A stretch of DNA of 64,000 bases from a phage, in sequence record PZ445454.1. One strand, 5' to 3'. Positions 3,586-52,241 of the stretch are shown here, piece by piece. Numbering within the stretch: the first letter of the stretch is position 1; each line of letters begins with the position of its first letter. Below the pieces are notes generated by a model. The model did not search any database. It was not told the origin of the DNA and saw only the letters and a list, made by a program, of their open reading frames with translations. The position numbers and the translations under genes were made by a program.

Positions 3586-3917
3586 TGGGAACATTAACTA
3601 TTGATGGTAAGAATAAAATCCTCGCCACGCTAACCCCAACGACTATTATTTTACACAATGTAGACCCAACGGCAGACCCTACAGCAAATAAGGTTACTCA
3701 GCCAGTGGCTATTTATTTTTCTGAACCGGATAATGGCTTAATTGCCTCAGAAGACACAGTTAATATTACTGTTCCAGCTTCTGCAACGGTCTCACACTAT
3801 AGCTTGTGGGATGCTAACGATAAATGCGTGGCAACTGGTGCTCTTAGCAAACCTCAATTCTTTGCTGAAGAAGGTATCTATGTTATCTCTTCAGTCTCTG
3901 TAGATTTAAACAAATAG
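3585..3917 (+). CDS. hypothetical head-module protein
   Basis: 110-aa ORF, ATG overlaps previous stop. Confidence 0.45.
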   Translation: MGTLTIDGKNKILATLTPTTIILHNVDPTADPTANKVTQPVAIYFSEPDNGLIASEDTVNITVPASATVSHYSLWDANDKCVATGALSKPQFFAEEGIYVISSVSVDLNK

Positions 3918-3928
3918 GGTGAGTAAAA

Positions 3929-5275
3929 ATGAGTTCGAATATCTTCAGACTTGCTGATAGATTATTCAACCAACCTTTACTAGCCACTGAATCATTAGCT
4001 CACTCAGCAGCAACTTATGTGAATAACAGATTGCTGGGTGATGTCCAAGCAGCAGTAAACTTTGATAAACCCAAAGGTGAAGCAAGAAGTCTTTTAAAAG
4101 TAAAAGATGATATTGCTATTATCCCTATTATGGGTGGTTTAACTCACCGTATGACATTCATTGATGCAATGTGTACAGGTGGTTTAAGCTCTTATGAAGG
4201 TTTACGCAGAGGCTTTGACGAAGCTTTAGCAGATGAGTCAATTAAGACTATTGTTCTGCACATCGATTCTGGTGGTGGTGAAGCTTCAGGTTGCTTTGAA
4301 TTAGCACGTCACATTATGGCTTCAAGAGGCCAAAAGAAAATTATTGCTTATGTAGATGAGTTCGCTTGTTCCGCTGCATATGCTCTTGCATCTTCTGCTG
4401 AAGAAATTATTGCATCACCAGATGCAGATGTTGGTTCTATTGGTGTAATCATGGTTCATCAGGAATTAACTAAGGCATTTGAAAAGAATGGCGTAACAAT
4501 TAACGTCATCAAAGCTGGTGAGTTTAAAGGTATGGGTTCACCATTCCAAGCACTTTCAGAAGAAAGCAAAGAAAGACTTCAAAAGAGAATTAATGATACC
4601 TACGCAACCTTTACAGGTTTTGTAGCCGAATCTCGTAATATCTCTGAAGAAGCTGTAAAGAATACTGAGGCGAATGTTTATTCTGCTCAGGAAGCTCTTG
4701 AACTTGGTTTAATTAACTCAATCATGTCTCAAGATGATTTCTTAAATTACTTACAAGGTTCTGAAGAGGCTCCTGTAAGTTTAAACGTTAACAATTCAGG
4801 TGAAGAAATGACTGAACAAGAAAAGCAAGAACTAGAAGCTTTGCGTCTTCAGGTTGCTCAAATGAAAGCTAAAGAACAGGAAGCTGCTTTGTCAGATTTG
4901 ACTAATAAGATTTCTGCTTCTGCTGAAGCTTTTGGATTTGATGCAAAAGAAGCTGCAACGACTATTTTAGGTGCTGGTCTTGATAACCCTCTAAGTGTTC
5001 TGTTTATGAATGCTATGGAAGGTGCTAACCAGAAACTTAATGAAACTATCGCGTCCCATGCTTCTGCAATGGAAGAAAAAGAATCAGAAATCACCAAGCT
5101 GAAAGAAACTGCTGGTGCTGTTCTTGAACATTCCAACGCTATGGAAGAAGTGGGTAATGACGGCGAAGCTGATTTGGTTGAAGAAGAAAAAGAACCAGCT
5201 AAAAATGCTTCCGAAGACACCGCTGAACAACGCAAACTGGCTCTCCAGAATGCTCTAAAATCTCTTATCAAATAA
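3929..5275 (+). CDS. prohead protease (S49/ClpP-like) fused to acidic coiled-coil scaffold-like C-terminal half
   Basis: N-terminal half has S49-like signature (IVLHIDSGGGEASG, ACSAAYALASSAEEIIASPDADVGSIGV); C-terminal 200 aa Glu/Ala/Lys-rich; lies between portal and capsid. Confidence 0.6.
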   Translation: MSSNIFRLADRLFNQPLLATESLAHSAATYVNNRLLGDVQAAVNFDKPKGEARSLLKVKDDIAIIPIMGGLTHRMTFIDAMCTGGLSSYEGLRRGFDEALADESIKTIVLHIDSGGGEASGCFELARHIMASRGQKKIIAYVDEFACSAAYALASSAEEIIASPDADVGSIGVIMVHQELTKAFEKNGVTINVIKAGEFKGMGSPFQALSEESKERLQKRINDTYATFTGFVAESRNISEEAVKNTEANVYSAQEALELGLINSIMSQDDFLNYLQGSEEAPVSLNVNNSGEEMTEQEKQELEALRLQVAQMKAKEQEAALSDLTNKISASAEAFGFDAKEAATTILGAGLDNPLSVLFMNAMEGANQKLNETIASHASAMEEKESEITKLKETAGAVLEHSNAMEEVGNDGEADLVEEEKEPAKNASEDTAEQRKLALQNALKSLIK

Positions 5276-45918: not shown

Positions 45919-46160
45919 TGACTTATGTAATTTACTCCAAAACTGGATGCCCTCAATGTGAGACTGCAAAGAATTTTGCAAAAGCTCGTGGTATTGAACA
46001 TGTTGTGAGAATGTTAGGGCAGGATTATGAGCTATCAGACCTGATGGATATTGCACAGATGCCAGTTCGTCAGATGCCATTCATCATGAAAACTGATGGG
46101 CAAAACCTAAAGCCTGTTGGAACGCTACAGAATTTTATGGCAGAGGTGAATAATGCTTAA
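45918..46160 (+). CDS. nrdH: glutaredoxin-like protein NrdH
   Basis: 80 aa; redox motif CPQC near N-terminus; coupled to nrdB. Confidence 0.65.
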   Translation: MTYVIYSKTGCPQCETAKNFAKARGIEHVVRMLGQDYELSDLMDIAQMPVRQMPFIMKTDGQNLKPVGTLQNFMAEVNNA

Positions 46161-46359
46161 ACGCCTTTGGGAAGGTTTGGTTGTTGATGCACCAGCTATT
46201 GTGATTGGTATGCTTATTGTTAACCTATTTACTGACTTTGAACAAGGTTCATTGTTTGGAGCTATGTTACTATGGGTTATCTTCGAAATATTAGAGATAC
46301 AGTTAGGTATCACTGAAAAACTAAGAGAACTCTTTGCGAAGTTTTCTAAAAAGATTTAA
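46153..46359 (+). CDS. small membrane protein
   Basis: 68 aa; hydrophobic segments AIVIGMLIVNLF and GAMLLWVIFEIL. Confidence 0.4.
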   Translation: MLKRLWEGLVVDAPAIVIGMLIVNLFTDFEQGSLFGAMLLWVIFEILEIQLGITEKLRELFAKFSKKI

Positions 46360-46366
46360 AATGAAA

Positions 46367-46388
46367 GGGTCTCTTCGGAGACCTTTTT
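46367..46388 (+). terminator. rho-independent terminator (UUCG tetraloop)
   Basis: gggtctc-ttcg-gagacc then TTTTT. Confidence 0.65.
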
Positions 46389-46407
46389 AGCATGTAAAGG
46401 GGCAATA

Positions 46408-47604
46408 ATGAACAAAGTACAGATTATTAAAAAGAATGGCTCACTCGAAGAACCTGATATCAAAAAAGTTTTAGCAGCAGTCACAAAGTCAGCTAATAGG
46501 GTTGGGTATAGAGAACTCCCACCAGATGTTACCCAAGCTCTTGAGTCAGCATTTATGAGGATTCTGGTAAAATCCACTAAGCAGAATAACTTGCTCATCT
46601 CGGTAAATGATATCCACAGTATCGTTGAAGGTGCTTTGGCAGAAGTCAATCACGAGATTTATGAGTCTTACTCAACATACAGAAATTACCGTAAAGAGGT
46701 TGCTCAAAATTGGGATGAACTCTACCAGAAGACTAAAGATACACTCTTCTTAGGTGACCGTGAAAATGCTAACTTTGACAGTAGTTTAATTTCTACGAAA
46801 GGTTCAATTATCCGTGGTTACCTGACTAAAGAAATCTTTAAACAGTATCATCTAACACCAGAGGAACTTGAAGCCATTGAGAAAGGCTTTATCTATATCC
46901 ACGATTTGAGAGACCTGATTTTTGGTGGTATTAACTGTTGCCTGTTTGACATTGGTAAAGTCCTGAAAGGTGGCTTTGAAATGTCTGGCATCGAATATTG
47001 TGAACCAAAGTCTGTGCTGTCGGCCTTACAGGTTATTGGTGACGTAGTTCTTTCAGCAACTGCACAGCAATTTGGTGGCTTTACTTTAGCAGAGATTGAT
47101 AAGGTACTTGTGCCGTATGCTAAGAAGTCTCTACGCTACCATGCTGAGAAAGCAGCATCTTATGGTATTCCTAAAGAACATTACCATAATTATGTCATGG
47201 AGCAGCTACAGCTTGAATTGACTCAAGGTTTTCAATCACTTGAAATGAAACTAAACACTGTACCTTGTAGCCGTGGGGATTTTGCATTCACAACTTTGAC
47301 ATTTGGTTTACTTGACTCAGATATGTCTAATGAAGACAACCGGCTACAATACATGATTGCAAGTACTCTCCTAGATGTTCGTATGAATGGACAAGGTAAG
47401 AGCAAGAAGCCTGTTGTATTCCCTAAACTGGTTTATATCTATGACCAGAAGAGACATGATGAAAATATCTGTCAAGGTCACCTGTACAGTAAAGCCATTG
47501 AGTGCTGCTCTAAAGCAATGTATCCAGATTTCTTAAGTGTATCTGGTCATGGTGCTGTAGCAGAGGCTTTTGAGCGTTCTGGTAAGGTTATTTCACCGAT
47601 GGGT
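46408..47604 (+). CDS. nrdD: anaerobic ribonucleoside-triphosphate reductase, exon 1
   Basis: N-terminal ATP-cone; ORF ends ...VISPMG then stop; joins in frame to exon 2 giving SPMG-CRAFL. Confidence 0.65.
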
Positions 47605-48346
47605 TAACAGGCTCTATAGCTCATCTAAAACGTGCCTAAACAGGGAAACTCTACAGATGTAGACAATCCTGTGCTAAATGATGTAAGATGTAAGAAACTA
47701 TATAACATAGGAGTATTACATGCCAAATTATCATGTTACTGAAGACGGAAGAGTCTTTAGAGAAAATGGTGTAGAGCTTACACAGTGGAAATCCAACACT
47801 GGGTATATGAAAGTAAAGTTTTACGGTAAGAAGAATCGTGACATGTATGTCCATAGGTTAGTTGCTGAGAAATATGTACCTAACCCAAACAATCTTCCAA
47901 TTGTAAAACACAAAGATGATAACAAACTGAACAACCATGCTTCTAACTTAGAATGGGGAACTCATTCTGAGAATGTTAAAGAAGGTTATGAGAACGGTTG
48001 CTACAAGTTTTGTAAGCGTTCATATGCTGTGAAGGCTACACACAAAGTGACAAAAGAAGTTATTGCTGCCAAGTCAATACGAGAGTTATCCAATATACTC
48101 GGATATAATCGCAAGACTATCTCTTCAATATTGAAGGGTGTAAAAGAGCATAATAACTTTGAACATGAATTTGAATACATCTAAATGCCGAACGACTAAC
48201 CGTGATGAATGTAGCGGTGTAGGGTCAAGCGACTCGAAATGGTACGCTACTTAGAAATAAGTAGAAGATATAGTCTGGACTTACTGGTGACAGTAAGCAG
48301 CTTGGATAAAGCGGGGTAAGCGTAGCGAACTTGCCTGAACAACAAG
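47605..48346 (+). mobile_element. group I intron (candidate) interrupting nrdD, carrying HNH endonuclease ORF
   Basis: 5' exon ends in T; 3' part has short helices with GNRA-like loops (ctactt-agaaat-aagtag; ttactg-gtga-cagtaa), P7-like gact/agtc elements and terminal G before exon 2; boundaries approximate. Confidence 0.6.
47720..48184 (+). CDS. HNH homing endonuclease (intron-encoded)
   Basis: NUMOD4-like YHVTEDGRVF; HNH region HRLVAEKYVPNPNNLPIVKHKDDNKLNNHASNLEWGTHSEN; C-terminal HTH-like SIRELSNILGYNRKTISSILKG; RBS AGGAG. Confidence 0.65.
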   Translation: MPNYHVTEDGRVFRENGVELTQWKSNTGYMKVKFYGKKNRDMYVHRLVAEKYVPNPNNLPIVKHKDDNKLNNHASNLEWGTHSENVKEGYENGCYKFCKRSYAVKATHKVTKEVIAAKSIRELSNILGYNRKTISSILKGVKEHNNFEHEFEYI

Positions 48347-49294
48347 TGTAGAGCATTTTTATCACCATACCATAACGAAGATGGTGAAGAGTTTTATGTA
48401 GGTCGTGCTAACATTGGTGCTGTGTCTTTGAACTTACCAATGATTTACCAGTATTCTAAAGAGAATGGTTTAGATTTCTGGAAAGAGCTTGATAAGTACC
48501 TAGAGATGATTCGTAGTTTCCACAAGAAACGCTATGAAATGATTGCCAATATGCCAGCAAGTTCTAACCCTCTTGCATTTACACAAGGTGGTCTGTACAA
48601 AGGAACTAAGAAGCCTACTGACAGGGTTGGTTGGGATATTGTGAAGTCCTTCACAGCTTCTTTTGGGGTTACTGCGCTTGATGAGCTATCTGTTCTTGCT
48701 GAAGGTAAACGACTTCATGAAGTTGGAAGTTATAGTTTTGCATATGATGTTCTGGCATACATCAACATGAAAACTGAAGAGTTTAAAAATGAAGATGGCT
48801 TCTTATATGCCGTCTATGGTACTCCAGCAGAATCACTTTGTGGAACTCAGCTAAAACAGTTCAGAGAAATGTTTGGTGTTATCAAAGGTGTTTCTGATAA
48901 GGAATATTTTACAAACAGTTTCCATATGAATGTTGCAGCAGACATCTCACCATTTGAGAAGCAGGACTTAGAAGAACCATTCTTCCATATCTGTAGAGGT
49001 GGCAGAATCCAGTATGTAAGGGTAGCTAACCCAGAAAACTTAACAGCACTTAAAAGTTGTATTACAAGAGGGATGTTGAAAGGTTTTTATCAGGGACTTA
49101 ACTTTGACTTAGCAATCTGTGAACATTGTGGTAACAGACCAAAGGCTGATGTCGAAGAATGTGAGGTTTGCCATTCACATGATATCTCTGTGATTAACAG
49201 GGTGTGCGGATATCTGGGATGGACTAAGATTAAAGGTGAATCCCGAATGAATGATGCAAAAATCGCTGAGATTCGTGACAGGATTTCTATGTAA
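48347..49294 (+). CDS. nrdD: anaerobic ribonucleoside-triphosphate reductase, exon 2
   Basis: glycyl-radical motif RVCGYLG near C-terminus; zinc-ribbon cysteines CEHCG...CEVCHS; frame open from about 48347. Confidence 0.65.
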   Translation, partial: CRAFLSPYHNEDGEEFYVGRANIGAVSLNLPMIYQYSKENGLDFWKELDKYLEMIRSFHKKRYEMIANMPASSNPLAFTQGGLYKGTKKPTDRVGWDIVKSFTASFGVTALDELSVLAEGKRLHEVGSYSFAYDVLAYINMKTEEFKNEDGFLYAVYGTPAESLCGTQLKQFREMFGVIKGVSDKEYFTNSFHMNVAADISPFEKQDLEEPFFHICRGGRIQYVRVANPENLTALKSCITRGMLKGFYQGLNFDLAICEHCGNRPKADVEECEVCHSHDISVINRVCGYLGWTKIKGESRMNDAKIAEIRDRISM

Positions 49295-49448
49295 AACTTG
49301 ACAAGATGGTGTGGGTCTTGATAGGCTTACATCACCTTTTTTATTGGATGTTAGATATGGCAGAGAGTATTATTGGGTTGTTCATAGGTTCTGTCTTACT
49401 AGGGTTCTTTTTAGGACTCTCTTATTGTGAATTGAGAGATAAGTTAAA

Positions 49449-49649
49449 ATGTTTAAGATATCAAAAACGATGATATACATACTCCACATTCTAATCTTCT
49501 TCTTTGGGGTTAGTGTTATGGTATGGGGTTTTTCAGACCCACAATGGAGTTTCTCATATCATGGTCAGATGGATTTATGGTCATGCTTCAAACCATTTTT
49601 AGGGTTAGCTATAGCATTCAGTGCATTACCAACTAAGGTGAAATTATGA
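49449..49649 (+). CDS. small membrane protein (2 predicted TM)
   Basis: 66 aa; MIYILHILIFFFGVSVMVWGF and FLGLAIAFSAL. Confidence 0.4.
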   Translation: MFKISKTMIYILHILIFFFGVSVMVWGFSDPQWSFSYHGQMDLWSCFKPFLGLAIAFSALPTKVKL

Positions 49650-50041
49650 TTAAGTTAAACCAAAAACAGTTAGAGTGGCTTAAAGATTACGCCTCAGAGT
49701 GTGGCTCTTGCGAAAAGAATCACGTAAAATACTCAACATTCCATACGACCTTCATATTGTATATCAGCGACAACGTTCTAAGCGATTCCGTAGAAGATGG
49801 TGTAGTATTGCCTAATGAGTTACTTGATAAATTAGCTGTAGTCACTGGAACTTGGTCTGAAGAAGATGGTCATGAATTATCTGATGATGTTGTCTTCTAC
49901 ACCCTTGAAAACATCATGAATCCAGAGTACATTATACTAATGACTTGCGCGCAAGATTGTGTTCCATTACAAGACTTTATTAAAGAACACTGTGAAGAGT
50001 TTATTACTAAACAGGTTCCTTGTGAGGTGGTGTTTGAATGA
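49646..50041 (+). CDS. hypothetical Cys-containing protein
   Basis: 131-aa ORF. Confidence 0.4.
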   Translation: MIKLNQKQLEWLKDYASECGSCEKNHVKYSTFHTTFILYISDNVLSDSVEDGVVLPNELLDKLAVVTGTWSEEDGHELSDDVVFYTLENIMNPEYIILMTCAQDCVPLQDFIKEHCEEFITKQVPCEVVFE

Positions 50042-50337
50042 GTAAAACAATTCGAAGAAAAGGTTTAAAGAACGTTCATGGACTCTATGAGTGGAGAAAT
50101 GAGGTACGTAACAGAGAAAATGCTTCAGAGGTCTACTACCACTCTGATATGATGTCCAGAAAAGGTGGCTCTTACGACTTTACAAGTCAGCCTTGCAGAG
50201 AGATTAAGAAGGCTACTAAACGTCTTACAAGAACACAAATAAGGCAGCTTTCTAAGACATCCTTCTTAGATGAAGACTTTGACATTGATAGCAAGTCTCC
50301 AAAGAAAGCCGCTAACAGCACTTATATGTATTGGTGA
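50038..50337 (+). CDS. hypothetical basic protein
   Basis: 99-aa ORF. Confidence 0.4.
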   Translation: MSKTIRRKGLKNVHGLYEWRNEVRNRENASEVYYHSDMMSRKGGSYDFTSQPCREIKKATKRLTRTQIRQLSKTSFLDEDFDIDSKSPKKAANSTYMYW

Positions 50338-50346
50338 GGTAACTAG

Positions 50347-50832
50347 ATGAATTACATGGAGATTCGACCATTTGACACAGCTAATGGTGAAGGGGTTCGT
50401 GTAAGCCTCTTCGTAGCTGGCTGTAAACATCACTGTGAAGGATGCTTTAACAGGGAGTCTTGGAAGTTTAATGCTGGTAAAGAGTTTACCTATGCAAACC
50501 TCTACGGCATCATTAAGTTAATGGATGATAATGCTATCAGTGGGTTGTCAATACTTGGTGGGGAGCCTCTGGATGACAGAAACATTCAAGAGGTCACCAA
50601 CATATGCAAGCGTATTAAAACTGTTTATCCAGAAAAGTCTATATGGCTTTGGACAGGTTTTCAACTGCACGAAAAAATCCACTTAGATGTGATGAAATAT
50701 GTTGACGTGGTGATTGATGGTAAGTATGATTCATCTAAACCAACAGTTAAACCATATCGTGGTTCTGATAACCAAAACCTCTGGAGAAAAGAGTATGGAT
50801 GGCAAGGCGATTGTCAGTGGAGAGCAGAGTGA
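50347..50832 (+). CDS. nrdG: anaerobic ribonucleotide reductase activating protein (radical SAM)
   Basis: CKHHCEGCFN radical-SAM-type cysteine cluster; about 160 aa. Confidence 0.65.
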   Translation: MNYMEIRPFDTANGEGVRVSLFVAGCKHHCEGCFNRESWKFNAGKEFTYANLYGIIKLMDDNAISGLSILGGEPLDDRNIQEVTNICKRIKTVYPEKSIWLWTGFQLHEKIHLDVMKYVDVVIDGKYDSSKPTVKPYRGSDNQNLWRKEYGWQGDCQWRAE

Positions 50833-51070
50833 TTATTCTGGCAAGTGGACTTATGACATCAACAAGTTAGATGCTTGGATGATTTATACGAGAGAAAAAT
50901 TTGGTGCACATTCATTATGTGCTCTTGCAACGATTGTAAAGAATGTCACCTTTGTCATAAACGAGTCAGATAAATTTGGAAACTTCTACAGGATTCAAAA
51001 CATTAGAGAAGGTATAACTCCAATCGGTATCACTGAAGAAGAACTTCATAAGTTCTGTATCAAACTTTAA
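50794..51070 (+). CDS. hypothetical protein (start uncertain; overlaps nrdG 3' end)
   Basis: track ORF 50714..51070; internal ATG at 50794. Confidence 0.35.
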
Positions 51071-51073
51071 TGA

Positions 51074-51352
51074 GTGAGACTAAAAATGGGAATTTTAGGT
51101 AATATGAAAGCTGGATTCTTGAAGGCACTGGCAAAAGCAGCAGCAATCATTTCTATGACTGGAAAGCAGGTTGGTGTGGATGCTTCAGCAATTGCACAGG
51201 TTCTTGCAAGCCAAATTGAACAGCAGCCTTACATCCACGTTGGACGTGGTAAAGGTGGTAAAAAACAAGCACATCGACCAACTGGTGCAGCAGCTATTAA
51301 ACGAGCAGCTAAGAAAGCTCGTAACCGTAAACGTAATAAGAAGGCTAAATAA
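51074..51352 (+). CDS. small protein with amphipathic N-terminus and highly basic C-terminal tail
   Basis: C-terminus KRAAKKARNRKRNKKAK. Confidence 0.4.
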   Translation: MRLKMGILGNMKAGFLKALAKAAAIISMTGKQVGVDASAIAQVLASQIEQQPYIHVGRGKGGKKQAHRPTGAAAIKRAAKKARNRKRNKKAK

Positions 51353-51354
51353 TC

Positions 51355-51675
51355 ATGAGCAAAGTTTATAACACTCGCAAATTACAGATTTTCGTACTGT
51401 GCCAGTTTATGGCTAAAGAATATAACTTCTACTATTGTGGTACAGGTTTTATTAGTGATGATGATGGCTCATACCTCCCATTCAAAGAAGCTGTAAAACT
51501 CTTTAATGAAGAGAAAAGCTCTAAGAAAGATATTGAAAAGGTTAAGCTAACCTACAGCAAGAAAGATAAGAAGATTATCTGCCTAGATAACTTTGTAAAA
51601 GTTACTGGAGAAGCAAAAGAGTTTATGGATGAGAGTGAGATTTCATTCACAAGCATCTTGAAAGTAGCTCAGTAA
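51355..51675 (+). CDS. hypothetical protein
   Basis: 106-aa ORF followed by terminator. Confidence 0.4.
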   Translation: MSKVYNTRKLQIFVLCQFMAKEYNFYYCGTGFISDDDGSYLPFKEAVKLFNEEKSSKKDIEKVKLTYSKKDKKIICLDNFVKVTGEAKEFMDESEISFTSILKVAQ

Positions 51676-51687
51676 ACAGATACTATA

Positions 51688-51716
51688 AGGGGACTGTAAA
51701 GGTTCCCTTTTATTTT
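51688..51716 (+). terminator. rho-independent terminator (weaker)
   Basis: gggac..gttccc stem with G-U pair then TTTTATTTT. Confidence 0.4.
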
Positions 51717-51725
51717 GGAGATGAT

Positions 51726-52241
51726 ATGTATCTGTCAAACCTAAAACGTTCTGCTGCAATGTCAGTGCTAAGACTCAGCTTTGAGGAACGTCAAGAGTTC
51801 ATTGACTCCCACCAATACGACCCTTCTAACTCCAATCACATGATTCTCTGGAATCGTGGCAGTACTCGTGAAAGAGCACTATTCCGTTACTACCCGCATT
51901 ACACCATAGATAACCTGTATGAGTGTTTTGTTGTGAAGAACACCATTACAGTACTCAATAAACTTTGCAGATACACAGGTAGTCAATCCTTCACATTAGG
52001 CCACCACAAACCTGTTACAAAGGGTGGTGAGCATCACTGTGCAAACTGGTTTATCCAGACTAAACTTGATAACCAGAAGCAAGGGGATAACCTTCTAAGC
52101 ACACCTAAGATGACCTATGAAGAGCAAGAGAAATATATCAAAAATAATATGCCAGGTGTGCTTGACAACAACTATACAGATTTGGCAATATCTCTCCTGT
52201 TGAAGTTCGAGACAGTTTATAGGGCAACTTACAATGGCTAA
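51726..52241 (+). CDS. HNH-like nuclease (candidate)
   Basis: LGHHKPVTKGGEHHCANWFIQTKLDNQKQGDN fits an HNH-type core. Confidence 0.35.
   Translation: MYLSNLKRSAAMSVLRLSFEERQEFIDSHQYDPSNSNHMILWNRGSTRERALFRYYPHYTIDNLYECFVVKNTITVLNKLCRYTGSQSFTLGHHKPVTKGGEHHCANWFIQTKLDNQKQGDNLLSTPKMTYEEQEKYIKNNMPGVLDNNYTDLAISLLLKFETVYRATYNG

Follow-up and report, generated by a model that had tools for sequence, protein, structure and literature searches.

Why are nrdD and nrdG, the genes of an anaerobic ribonucleotide reductase and its activase, separated by about 1 kb of small genes in a Felix O1-like phage, and do those genes serve the reductase? The question is posed by positions 49295-50346 of a 64,000-nucleotide (nt) stretch of phage DNA (sequence record PZ445454.1, hereafter the window). 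A first-pass annotation had listed three small open reading frames (ORFs) in this interval, together with a tentative hydrophobic peptide; its coordinates are exact, with the end of nrdD at 49294 and the start of nrdG at 50347 confirmed on the sequence. All three ORFs are real and, with the peptide included, the genes number four; their products are called p38, p66, p131 and p99 after their lengths in amino acids (aa). The evidence below indicates that the interval is probably a dispensable accessory-gene cassette within a nucleotide-metabolism block, lying outside the reductase machinery. In particular, none of the four genes is needed for viability, as both natural losses and knockouts show.

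The window is, as judged from protein identities, Escherichia phage JohannRWettstein (Bas63), a Felixounavirus of the Ounavirinae, or an isolate indistinguishable from it. The assignment is made because p131 and p66 have exact matches in that named genome only (QXV81762.1, bas63_0071, and QXV81761.1, bas63_0070); p99 is likewise identical to bas63_0072. Across positions 46000-51500, 322 phage records match the window at 90-96% identity, and nearly all of them are Felix O1-like myoviruses.

Natural loss, replacement and knockout of the four genes

An NrdG profile was used to find the loci for comparison, 38 from Ounavirinae and 28 from other phages. Outside the Ounavirinae, the gap between nrdD and nrdG is at most about 354 base pairs (bp) in 22 of the 26 loci that have both genes; the statement that the two are normally adjacent is therefore roughly right, though not for T4, which has mobC between them. 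Inside the Ounavirinae, no gap is shorter than 554 bp. There, p38 and p131 are conserved beside nrdG in Felixounavirus, Mooglevirus and Suspvirus, and the alignments place the variability of the cluster in p66, in p99 and in the slot just after nrdD. This slot holds p38 alone, or a membrane protein gene (127 aa in Felixounavirus, 85 aa in Mooglevirus), or a free-standing HNH gene of 185-188 aa.

The entire set of four genes has been lost in Salmonella phages Si3 (locus L055), Mushroom and SPT-1, and in about two dozen further Salmonella phage records. The Si3-type deletion is clean. It is bounded by a pair of TATTGG repeats, the first shortly before the p38 start and the second at the p99 end, and it leaves nrdD, the HNH gene, a hairpin after nrdD, the ribosome-binding site (RBS) of nrdG and nrdG itself intact. 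Further, only 13 of 25 Felixounavirus loci have p99, as do 88 of about 290 GenBank records, and the genomes without it hold its remnants. In Felix O1 and two others, the first 42 nt of the gene are fused in frame to its last 15 nt (MSKTIRRKGLKNVHMYW, then a stop); in the other p99-less genomes, about 15 nt and the 3' end of the gene remain. The remnants show that p99 is ancestral and was removed at least twice by internal deletion. All deletion junctions retain TATTGGTGAGGTAAC(T/G)A(G/T)ATG, which is the nrdG RBS. At the other extreme, the gap of Pectobacterium phage Arno18 spans 4 kb and holds 11 ORFs, including a p99 homolog; no p131-like gene was found in this gap or in the large nrdD-nrdG gaps of loci L049, L058, L063 and L065.

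Mobile endonuclease genes add to this variation. The nrdD gene of the window is split by a 741-nt intervening sequence (47606-48346) that carries an HNH/NUMOD1 endonuclease ORF (47720-48184), and an Rfam group I intron match at 48012-48297 stays below threshold (38.9 bits against a 50-bit cut-off, E 1.9e-7). The exon junction, between 47605 and 48347, was placed from the uninterrupted nrdD of Felix O1, so that exon 2 starts 75 nt upstream of the listed GTG at 48422; a split nrdD has already been reported in relatives (PMC4837284). Moreover, a free-standing HNH gene stands right after the nrdD stop in loci L011 (4404-4961), L012 (4650-5207), L023, L031, L055 (5368-5925) and L004 (3278-3841). 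The motif ATGTAAAACTTGACAAGG recurs after the inserted HNH gene, and the insertion therefore lies upstream of the conserved hairpin. Overall, the comparisons indicate that the content of the interval varies through deletions at short repeats, gene replacement and homing-endonuclease gene insertion.

With endonuclease genes so close by, the cassette might be their passenger DNA, reshuffled by homing at the nrdD-nrdG junction and kept mainly by linkage. Such an origin would account for endonuclease genes in the nrdD intron, immediately downstream of nrdD in SUSP1 and several relatives, and in the nrdD-nrdG gap of T4, as well as for the motif repeated past the inserted HNH gene and for the repeated loss of p99, whose knockouts lie at the top of the nonessential range. 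However, purifying selection on all four genes is clear, p38 and p131 persist over three genera with or without an endonuclease gene, and the endonuclease genes insert upstream of the hairpin and not around the cassette. The passenger reading is accordingly very unlikely.

The genes can also be disrupted experimentally. PhageMaP (Chen et al., bioRxiv 10.1101/2024.10.10.617714) measured barcoded knockouts of Bas63 genes, numbered as in the locus tags (g65 glutaredoxin, g67 nrdD, g68 HNH, g73 nrdG); p38, p66, p131 and p99 are its g69, g70, g71 and g72. The values covered here, with three replicates each, come from S17-1 and MG1655 (two of four laboratory-strain data sets) and from strains with TerY-P, AVAST type 4 and retron Ec86 (three of eleven defence-strain data sets), on a scale where essential genes fall at about -1 to -4. 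In all five of these conditions, knockouts of g69-g72 have a non-negative mean fitness (Table 1 gives the laboratory strains), and the study calls the region from about 46 to 66 kb of Bas63 uniformly nonessential. The g72 knockouts reach about +1.1 to +1.7 in each of the five, among the highest values of nonessential genes and in keeping with the repeated natural loss of p99; the consistency of the high value remains a loose end.

Table 1. Fitness of Bas63 knockouts in two laboratory strains (three replicates each; PhageMaP)
Strain	g69 (p38)	g70 (p66)	g71 (p131)	g72 (p99)
S17-1	0.70/1.28/0.57	-0.53/1.55/0.67	1.00/0.49/0.84	1.52/1.52/1.43
MG1655	1.24/-0.07/-0.11	-0.22/0.37/1.45	0.64/0.68/0.30	1.45/1.36/1.71

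The same study validated counters to defence systems downstream in the same block, namely g77 against retron Ec67, and g79 and g80, a ribose-phosphate pyrophosphokinase and a nicotinamide phosphoribosyltransferase that counter defences depleting nicotinamide adenine dinucleotide (NAD), against Sir2-HerA, Ec86 and hhe. By gene order, the 171-aa ORF at 51726-52241 of the window is g77; it has no Pfam match, and its weak PHROG match is to HNH, not to GIY-YIG.

Does at least one of the four proteins have a comparable role, p131 as a mimic of a protein or of DNA, or the membrane peptides against membrane-acting abortive infection? The genes are variably present, nonessential and in the block of g77 and g79/g80, and p131 is small, very acidic and from a phage-restricted family, all of which a counter-defence factor would lead one to expect. 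However, the values for g69-g72 in the TerY-P, AVAST type 4 and Ec86 strains are similar to those in the laboratory strains, with no shift, whereas the positive controls g79/g80 drop to between -0.4 and -2.7 in Ec86. The text of the PhageMaP paper, which screened 12 systems, does not name g69-g72 at all, whether among its validated counters or its triggers. A PADLOC search returned no match for the cluster proteins, a weak argument since its library holds defence and not anti-defence proteins. In addition, p131 is conserved over Escherichia, Salmonella, Shigella and Citrobacter hosts instead of being patchy. A counter-defence role is thus unlikely, and these results give no support to the anti-defence function that the first-pass annotation had raised as a possibility. 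Its other proposal, that the genes are inserted accessory cargo, fares better: natural loss and knockouts agree on accessory and dispensable genes, but the cassette is not uniformly inserted, with p38 and p131 both conserved and syntenic.

Gene models and products

The features of the interval are collected in Table 2. The chain from p38 through p66, p131 and p99 to nrdG is tight, with overlaps of 25, 4 and 4 nt and then a 9-nt spacer that contains the nrdG RBS; the last codons of p99 carry the Shine-Dalgarno sequence of nrdG. Hidden Markov model matches to four PHROG families cover the whole profile in each case (20082, E 9.6e-40; 11929, 1.7e-47; 4382, 1.4e-63; 1774, 7.4e-29), and none of these families has a function label beyond 'membrane protein'. 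In comparisons of 8-21 distinct relatives per gene, the ratio of nonsynonymous to synonymous polymorphism (pN/pS) is 0.22 for p66 (14 distinct sequences), 0.10 for p131 and 0.10 for p99, next to 0.10 for nrdG and 0.06 for the C-terminal part of nrdD, and no internal stops occur in the p66, p131 and p99 genes. Because of the PHROG matches and the purifying selection, all four are real genes under constraint at the protein level.

Table 2. Features of the nrdD-nrdG interval (window coordinates)
Feature	Position	Strand	Description
nrdD exon 2	48347..49294	+	Felix O1 intact nrdD 1198-2145 aligns here; Pfam NRDD and Gly_radical match; stop TAA 49292-49294
TTGACA hexamer	49298..49303	+	4 nt past nrdD stop; invariant
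Hairpin and T6	49305..49342	+	14-bp stem 49305-49336, 4-nt loop; T6 49337-49342
p38 (Bas63 g69)	49357..49473	+	38-aa single-pass membrane peptide, MAESIIGLFIGSVLLGFFLGLSYCELRDKLKCLRYQKR; phrog_20082; 25-nt overlap with p66 gene
p66 (bas63_0070, g70)	49449..49649	+	66-aa membrane protein; phrog_11929
p131 (bas63_0071, g71)	49646..50041	+	acidic 131-aa alpha/beta protein; phrog_4382; start overlaps p66 stop (ATGA)
p99 (bas63_0072, g72)	50038..50337	+	basic 99-aa protein; phrog_1774; start overlaps p131 stop (ATGA)
nrdG and RBS	50336..50832	+	GAGGT 50336-50340, ATG 50347; Fer4_12 and Radical_SAM match

The p38 gene was the tentative entry. A longer, 55-aa ORF that starts at 49306 was tried as the gene and rejected, since its 17-codon extension is broken in relatives: about half of 21 relatives have an in-frame TGA or TAG, five have 1-nt indels in a T-run, and only this genome has the ATG start. 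These stops and frameshifts mark the 55-aa ORF as an artefact, and the alignments support the 38-aa peptide as the correct gene model. Its reading frame is intact in all 16 distinct nucleotide sequences, which encode 11 protein variants, and it recurs in Suspvirus and Mooglevirus. The peptide has an isoelectric point (pI) of 9.2 and a hydrophobic stretch over residues 1-26; its Suspvirus homologs are 71-84% identical. Homologs of 33-38 aa lie directly before the p131 gene in Suspviruses and Moogleviruses, and the 33-aa form of Mooglevirus and SUSP1 shares the core GSVLLGF(F/L)LGL. This form occupies 3906-4007 in both Citrobacter phage Moogle (locus L003) and phage SUSP1 (locus L004), where it is a single helix overlapping the start of the p131 homolog; the GenBank records of both phages leave it unannotated, and the 160-bp 'intergenic gap' there is coding.

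The neighbouring p66 was found in Felixounavirus only, and is absent from the Mooglevirus and Suspvirus loci compared. It had been described as having two transmembrane segments; one strong hydrophobic helix is evident at about residues 8-30, and the second segment (about 46-61) is only a weaker one. Both p38 and p66 are small, basic and hydrophobic, with matches limited to 'membrane protein' PHROGs.

The largest product, p131, is strongly acidic (pI 4.3), which disfavours RNA binding. Its homologs occur in 231 phage records, and a word-indexed protein search with p131 or p99 returns close relatives only. With a profile, the word-indexed search yields 27 clusters at 90% identity, and an exhaustive profile search of 1.8 billion representatives yields 18 clusters; the family is restricted to phages. 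Its remote members are 105-150 aa long and have in common an N-terminal domain that carries the motifs EHR(K/R)(Y/G)SxF and GxWSDxxG. H26 and S30 are invariant in the Ounavirinae, and H26, R27 and S30 are nearly invariant with the remote homologs added; position 27 is Val in this phage. Sequence-profile searches of Pfam, NCBIfam, PADLOC and the PDB gave no match to p131.

The AlphaFold2 model of p131 is confident, with a predicted local distance difference test score (pLDDT) of 91 and a predicted template modelling score (pTM) of 0.72. A Foldseek search of the PDB gave no significant match, and a search of BFVD structures found uncharacterised phage proteins only. The predicted fold is thus a confident one without a solved relative. 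The first-pass label 'Cys-containing' is meaningless for this protein because only C116 of its six cysteines is conserved, and a metal-binding p131 was rejected on the same ground. A conserved metal or cofactor motif was also not found, and flavodoxin, ferredoxin and thioredoxin folds are absent among the structural matches.

A different label, 'tail tube protein', is attached to p131 homologs in, for example, Citrobacter phage vB_CbrM_HP1, JLBYU28 and HMD-P8, with one neighbouring label reading 'baseplate distal hub subunit', and has propagated between annotations. PhageMaP also applies it to g71, next to 'membrane protein' for g69 and g70 (these labels carry an asterisk in the source) and 'hypothetical' for g72. 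It was rejected here, as it conflicts with the predicted fold, with the dispensability of g71 and with a cryo-electron microscopy study of Bas63, which identifies the tube as gp14 and leaves gp69-72 unmentioned. More generally, synteny, homology and structure comparisons identified no relative in which these are conserved core genes with a known structural or metabolic role.

The fixed position of p38 and p131 beside nrdG suggests another reading, that some of these genes help the anaerobic reductase. Under this main rival to an accessory cassette, p38 and p131, and perhaps all four proteins, would deliver electrons or formate to NrdG or NrdD, serve as an anchor or regulator of the enzyme, or set the ratio of NrdD to NrdG. 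It explains the location between nrdD and nrdG. Moreover, p131 occurs in 36 of the 38 Ounavirinae loci, always upstream of nrdG with p99 as the only gene ever between them, and its stop overlaps or abuts the nrdG start in Moogleviruses and Suspviruses; p38 precedes it in three genera; purifying selection on p131 equals that on nrdG; and Kolesnikvirus, which lacks nrdDG at that position, also lacks p131. However, the Si3/Mushroom clade has an intact nrdD and nrdG without any of the four genes, and Arno18 has both reductase genes with no detectable p131. Further, p131 has neither a conserved cysteine cluster or cofactor motif, C116 alone being invariant, nor a fold match of the flavodoxin, ferredoxin or thioredoxin type. 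In unrelated phage contigs its remote homologs are neighbours of DNA polymerase A or class I reductase genes and not of nrdG, and phages outside the Ounavirinae, as well as bacteria, use nrdDG without such genes. A helper role is therefore improbable.

The last product, p99, is basic as first described, with a pI of 9.85 and 21 lysines and arginines. It matches PF17603 (DUF5499) over residues 1-98 of the protein and 1-96 of the 97 model positions at 22.0 bits (E 2.6e-4), below the 27-bit gathering cut-off, whereas T4 gp55.5 scores 217 bits. Bridging members lie above the cut-off (phiEa104 gp108, 44.9 bits; Serratia phage 4S, 59.2 bits), and PJNS034 connects p99 (E 2e-7) to phiEa104 (6e-5) and 4S (7e-4). 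A pairwise BLASTP comparison of p99 with gp55.5 gives an E of 5e-8, and a six-sequence alignment of the family, at about 91-99 aa, shares an N-terminal KTxRRK, an HSD motif and a C-terminal acidic stretch with an aromatic end. The similarity scores thus place p99 as a remote member of the DUF5499/T4 gp55.5 family, with homology secure only via intermediates. Its AlphaFold2 model, made from near-identical sequences only, is unusable (pLDDT 49), and a literature search for DUF5499 or gp55.5 found nothing relevant.

Kolesnikvirus, again without nrdDG at that position, has a p99 homolog in the same neighbourhood, after nrdA-nrdB-glutaredoxin. In a separate observation, a p99-like gene (E 4e-10 to a family profile) and a p131-like gene flank DNA polymerase A on the metagenome contig SRR27361833_7753 from an unrelated phage (locus L068; 1000-1272 and 6001-6405). 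Other phage lineages may carry the p99 and p131 families in one type of replication or nucleotide-metabolism block.

The hairpin after nrdD and the nrdG message

A terminator scan detected the hairpin that follows nrdD, whose RNA has a minimum free energy of -16.9 kcal/mol (z -2.39). In 23 distinct sequences from Felixounavirus, Mooglevirus and Suspvirus, 98.1% of the alignment cells in the stem form standard pairs, compared to 33-53% in slid controls. Covariation includes a single compensatory change, from G-C to A-U in 3 sequences; in five pairs one side alone varies (GU/AU/GC). The stem has several G-U and few G-C pairs, and it has the stem-loop, U-run and conservation of an intrinsic terminator. 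The hairpin is still present in Si3, where the entire cassette is gone. Overall, it looks like a conserved RNA element of terminator or attenuator type, with support from the alignment that is decent, not overwhelming.

Just upstream, the TTGACA hexamer is invariant in the same 23 sequences and is a possible -35 box. Downstream of it, the sole candidate for a -10 box is TAGGCT, a weak one that falls within the hairpin after an 18-nt spacer. A sigma-70 promoter scan found 20 sites against 18.7 in shuffled sequence; since it does no better than shuffling, no promoter is claimed from it.

Transcription of the region has been followed in Felix O1 by reverse-transcription PCR, where the ORF120 transcript was detected with a maximum at 25 min, and ORF117 and ORF121 peaked at 60 min (Whichard et al., PMC3185647). 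Judged by the published map of terminators t116 and t124 and promoter P117, ORF117, ORF120 and ORF121 would be nrdD, the p131 ortholog and nrdG. In the window, terminator-like hairpins at 46368-46383 and 51687-51709 match Felix O1 t116 and t124, and bracket a unit from nrdD to a 106-aa ORF. A 68-aa two-helix membrane protein (46153-46359, phrog_4532) lies between the glutaredoxin gene and nrdD, and is kept in all Ounavirinae loci inspected.

A proposed host-directed cassette and its parallels in known phages

How would such a cassette work? It may be expressed on the nrdG message, with transcription either reading through the hairpin or starting from a TTGACA promoter. Translational coupling to nrdG would then limit where deletions can end, with the last ~12 nt of p99, which hold the nrdG RBS, always being kept. 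The products would act on the host rather than on the reductase, and confer a conditional advantage. In particular, p38 and p66 could be two small inner-membrane peptides that modulate the host membrane; p131, a presumably soluble acidic protein, would most likely bind and block a protein partner; and p99 would be a basic, probably nucleic-acid-binding protein of the gp55.5 family. Repeated arrival of mobile endonuclease genes in or beside nrdD may have made the junction itself a hot spot of recombination.

Several observations weigh against this account. The proposal of an action on the host rests on composition, dispensability and analogy, and p131 and p38 are fixed beside nrdG in three genera, which is more than free-floating cargo predicts and would be compatible with a reductase-linked role. 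The PhageMaP measurements were made under standard laboratory culture, where an anaerobic or natural-host phenotype would be missed, and the fitness of g69-g72 rests on the two laboratory and three defence strains named above. Moreover, the 25-min peak of ORF120, the presumed p131 ortholog, does not fit simple co-transcription with the presumed nrdD and nrdG, which peak at 60 min, and remains a loose end. Lastly, the TransTerm predictions for Felix O1 do not include the hairpin, whose role as a terminator is putative.

A bolder combination of these ideas would make p38-p131 a functional module, translationally chained to nrdG in three Ounavirinae genera, either adapting the oxygen-sensitive reductase to its host, with a phenotype that would show only under anaerobiosis, or forming a new class of host-protein inhibitor, with p99/gp55.5 as a widespread nucleic-acid-binding partner of nucleotide-metabolism blocks. 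This is a long shot. If p38-p131 does serve the anaerobic reductase, a well-studied enzyme would gain a previously undescribed accessory factor.

The genes themselves are already known, being deposited, present in PHROGs and covered by a genome-wide knockout screen, and as such they are of low interest. The present analysis adds a corrected p38 gene model, the assignment of p99 to DUF5499/gp55.5, the rejection of the 'tail tube' label, a conserved hairpin and the natural deletion alleles. Further, nature has validated the ~1 kb interval as a place for deletions or insertions when Felix O1-like therapeutic phages are engineered, as long as the hairpin and the terminal ~12 nt with the nrdG RBS are retained.

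Among known systems, the closest is Felix O1 itself, whose ORF289, ORF290 and ORF291 are the orthologs of p38/p55 (91% over 55 aa), p66 (98%) and p131 (92%), and their order between nrdD and nrdG is unchanged. They are RefSeq Felix01p220, Felix01p221 and an adjacent 131-aa hypothetical protein, which would correspond to genes 118-120 of Whichard et al. 2010, and have long been annotated as 'unknown' or 'hypothetical membrane protein'. Felix O1 differs in that its p99 is reduced to an in-frame 17-codon remnant and its nrdD is uninterrupted. Within Bas63, g77 and the NAD+ reconstitution genes g79/g80 are also small accessory genes on the same strand of the same ~20 kb nonessential block; in contrast to g69-g72, which show no phenotype in the conditions covered, they have validated ones.

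Variable regions of T4-type phages contain small nonessential ORFs, and T4 offers the most detailed parallel. Its block runs 49 - nrdD(intron) - mobC - nrdG - 55.8 - nrdH - 55.6 - 55.5 ... 55, so that the reductase pair is again split by an extra gene, nrdD again has a group I intron with an endonuclease ORF, and small membrane or hypothetical ORFs (55.8, 55.x) again lie nearby. The T4 gp55.5 protein resembles p99 in length (97 versus 99 aa), in its basic character, in the N-terminal MxKTxRRK, in the HSD motif and in a C-terminus that is acidic and then aromatic; however, gene 55.5 lies downstream of nrdG and nrdH, whereas the p99 gene lies between nrdD and nrdG. The intervening gene also differs, as T4 has the homing endonuclease gene mobC in the position where the window has four genes that encode no endonuclease, of which two are conserved across genera.

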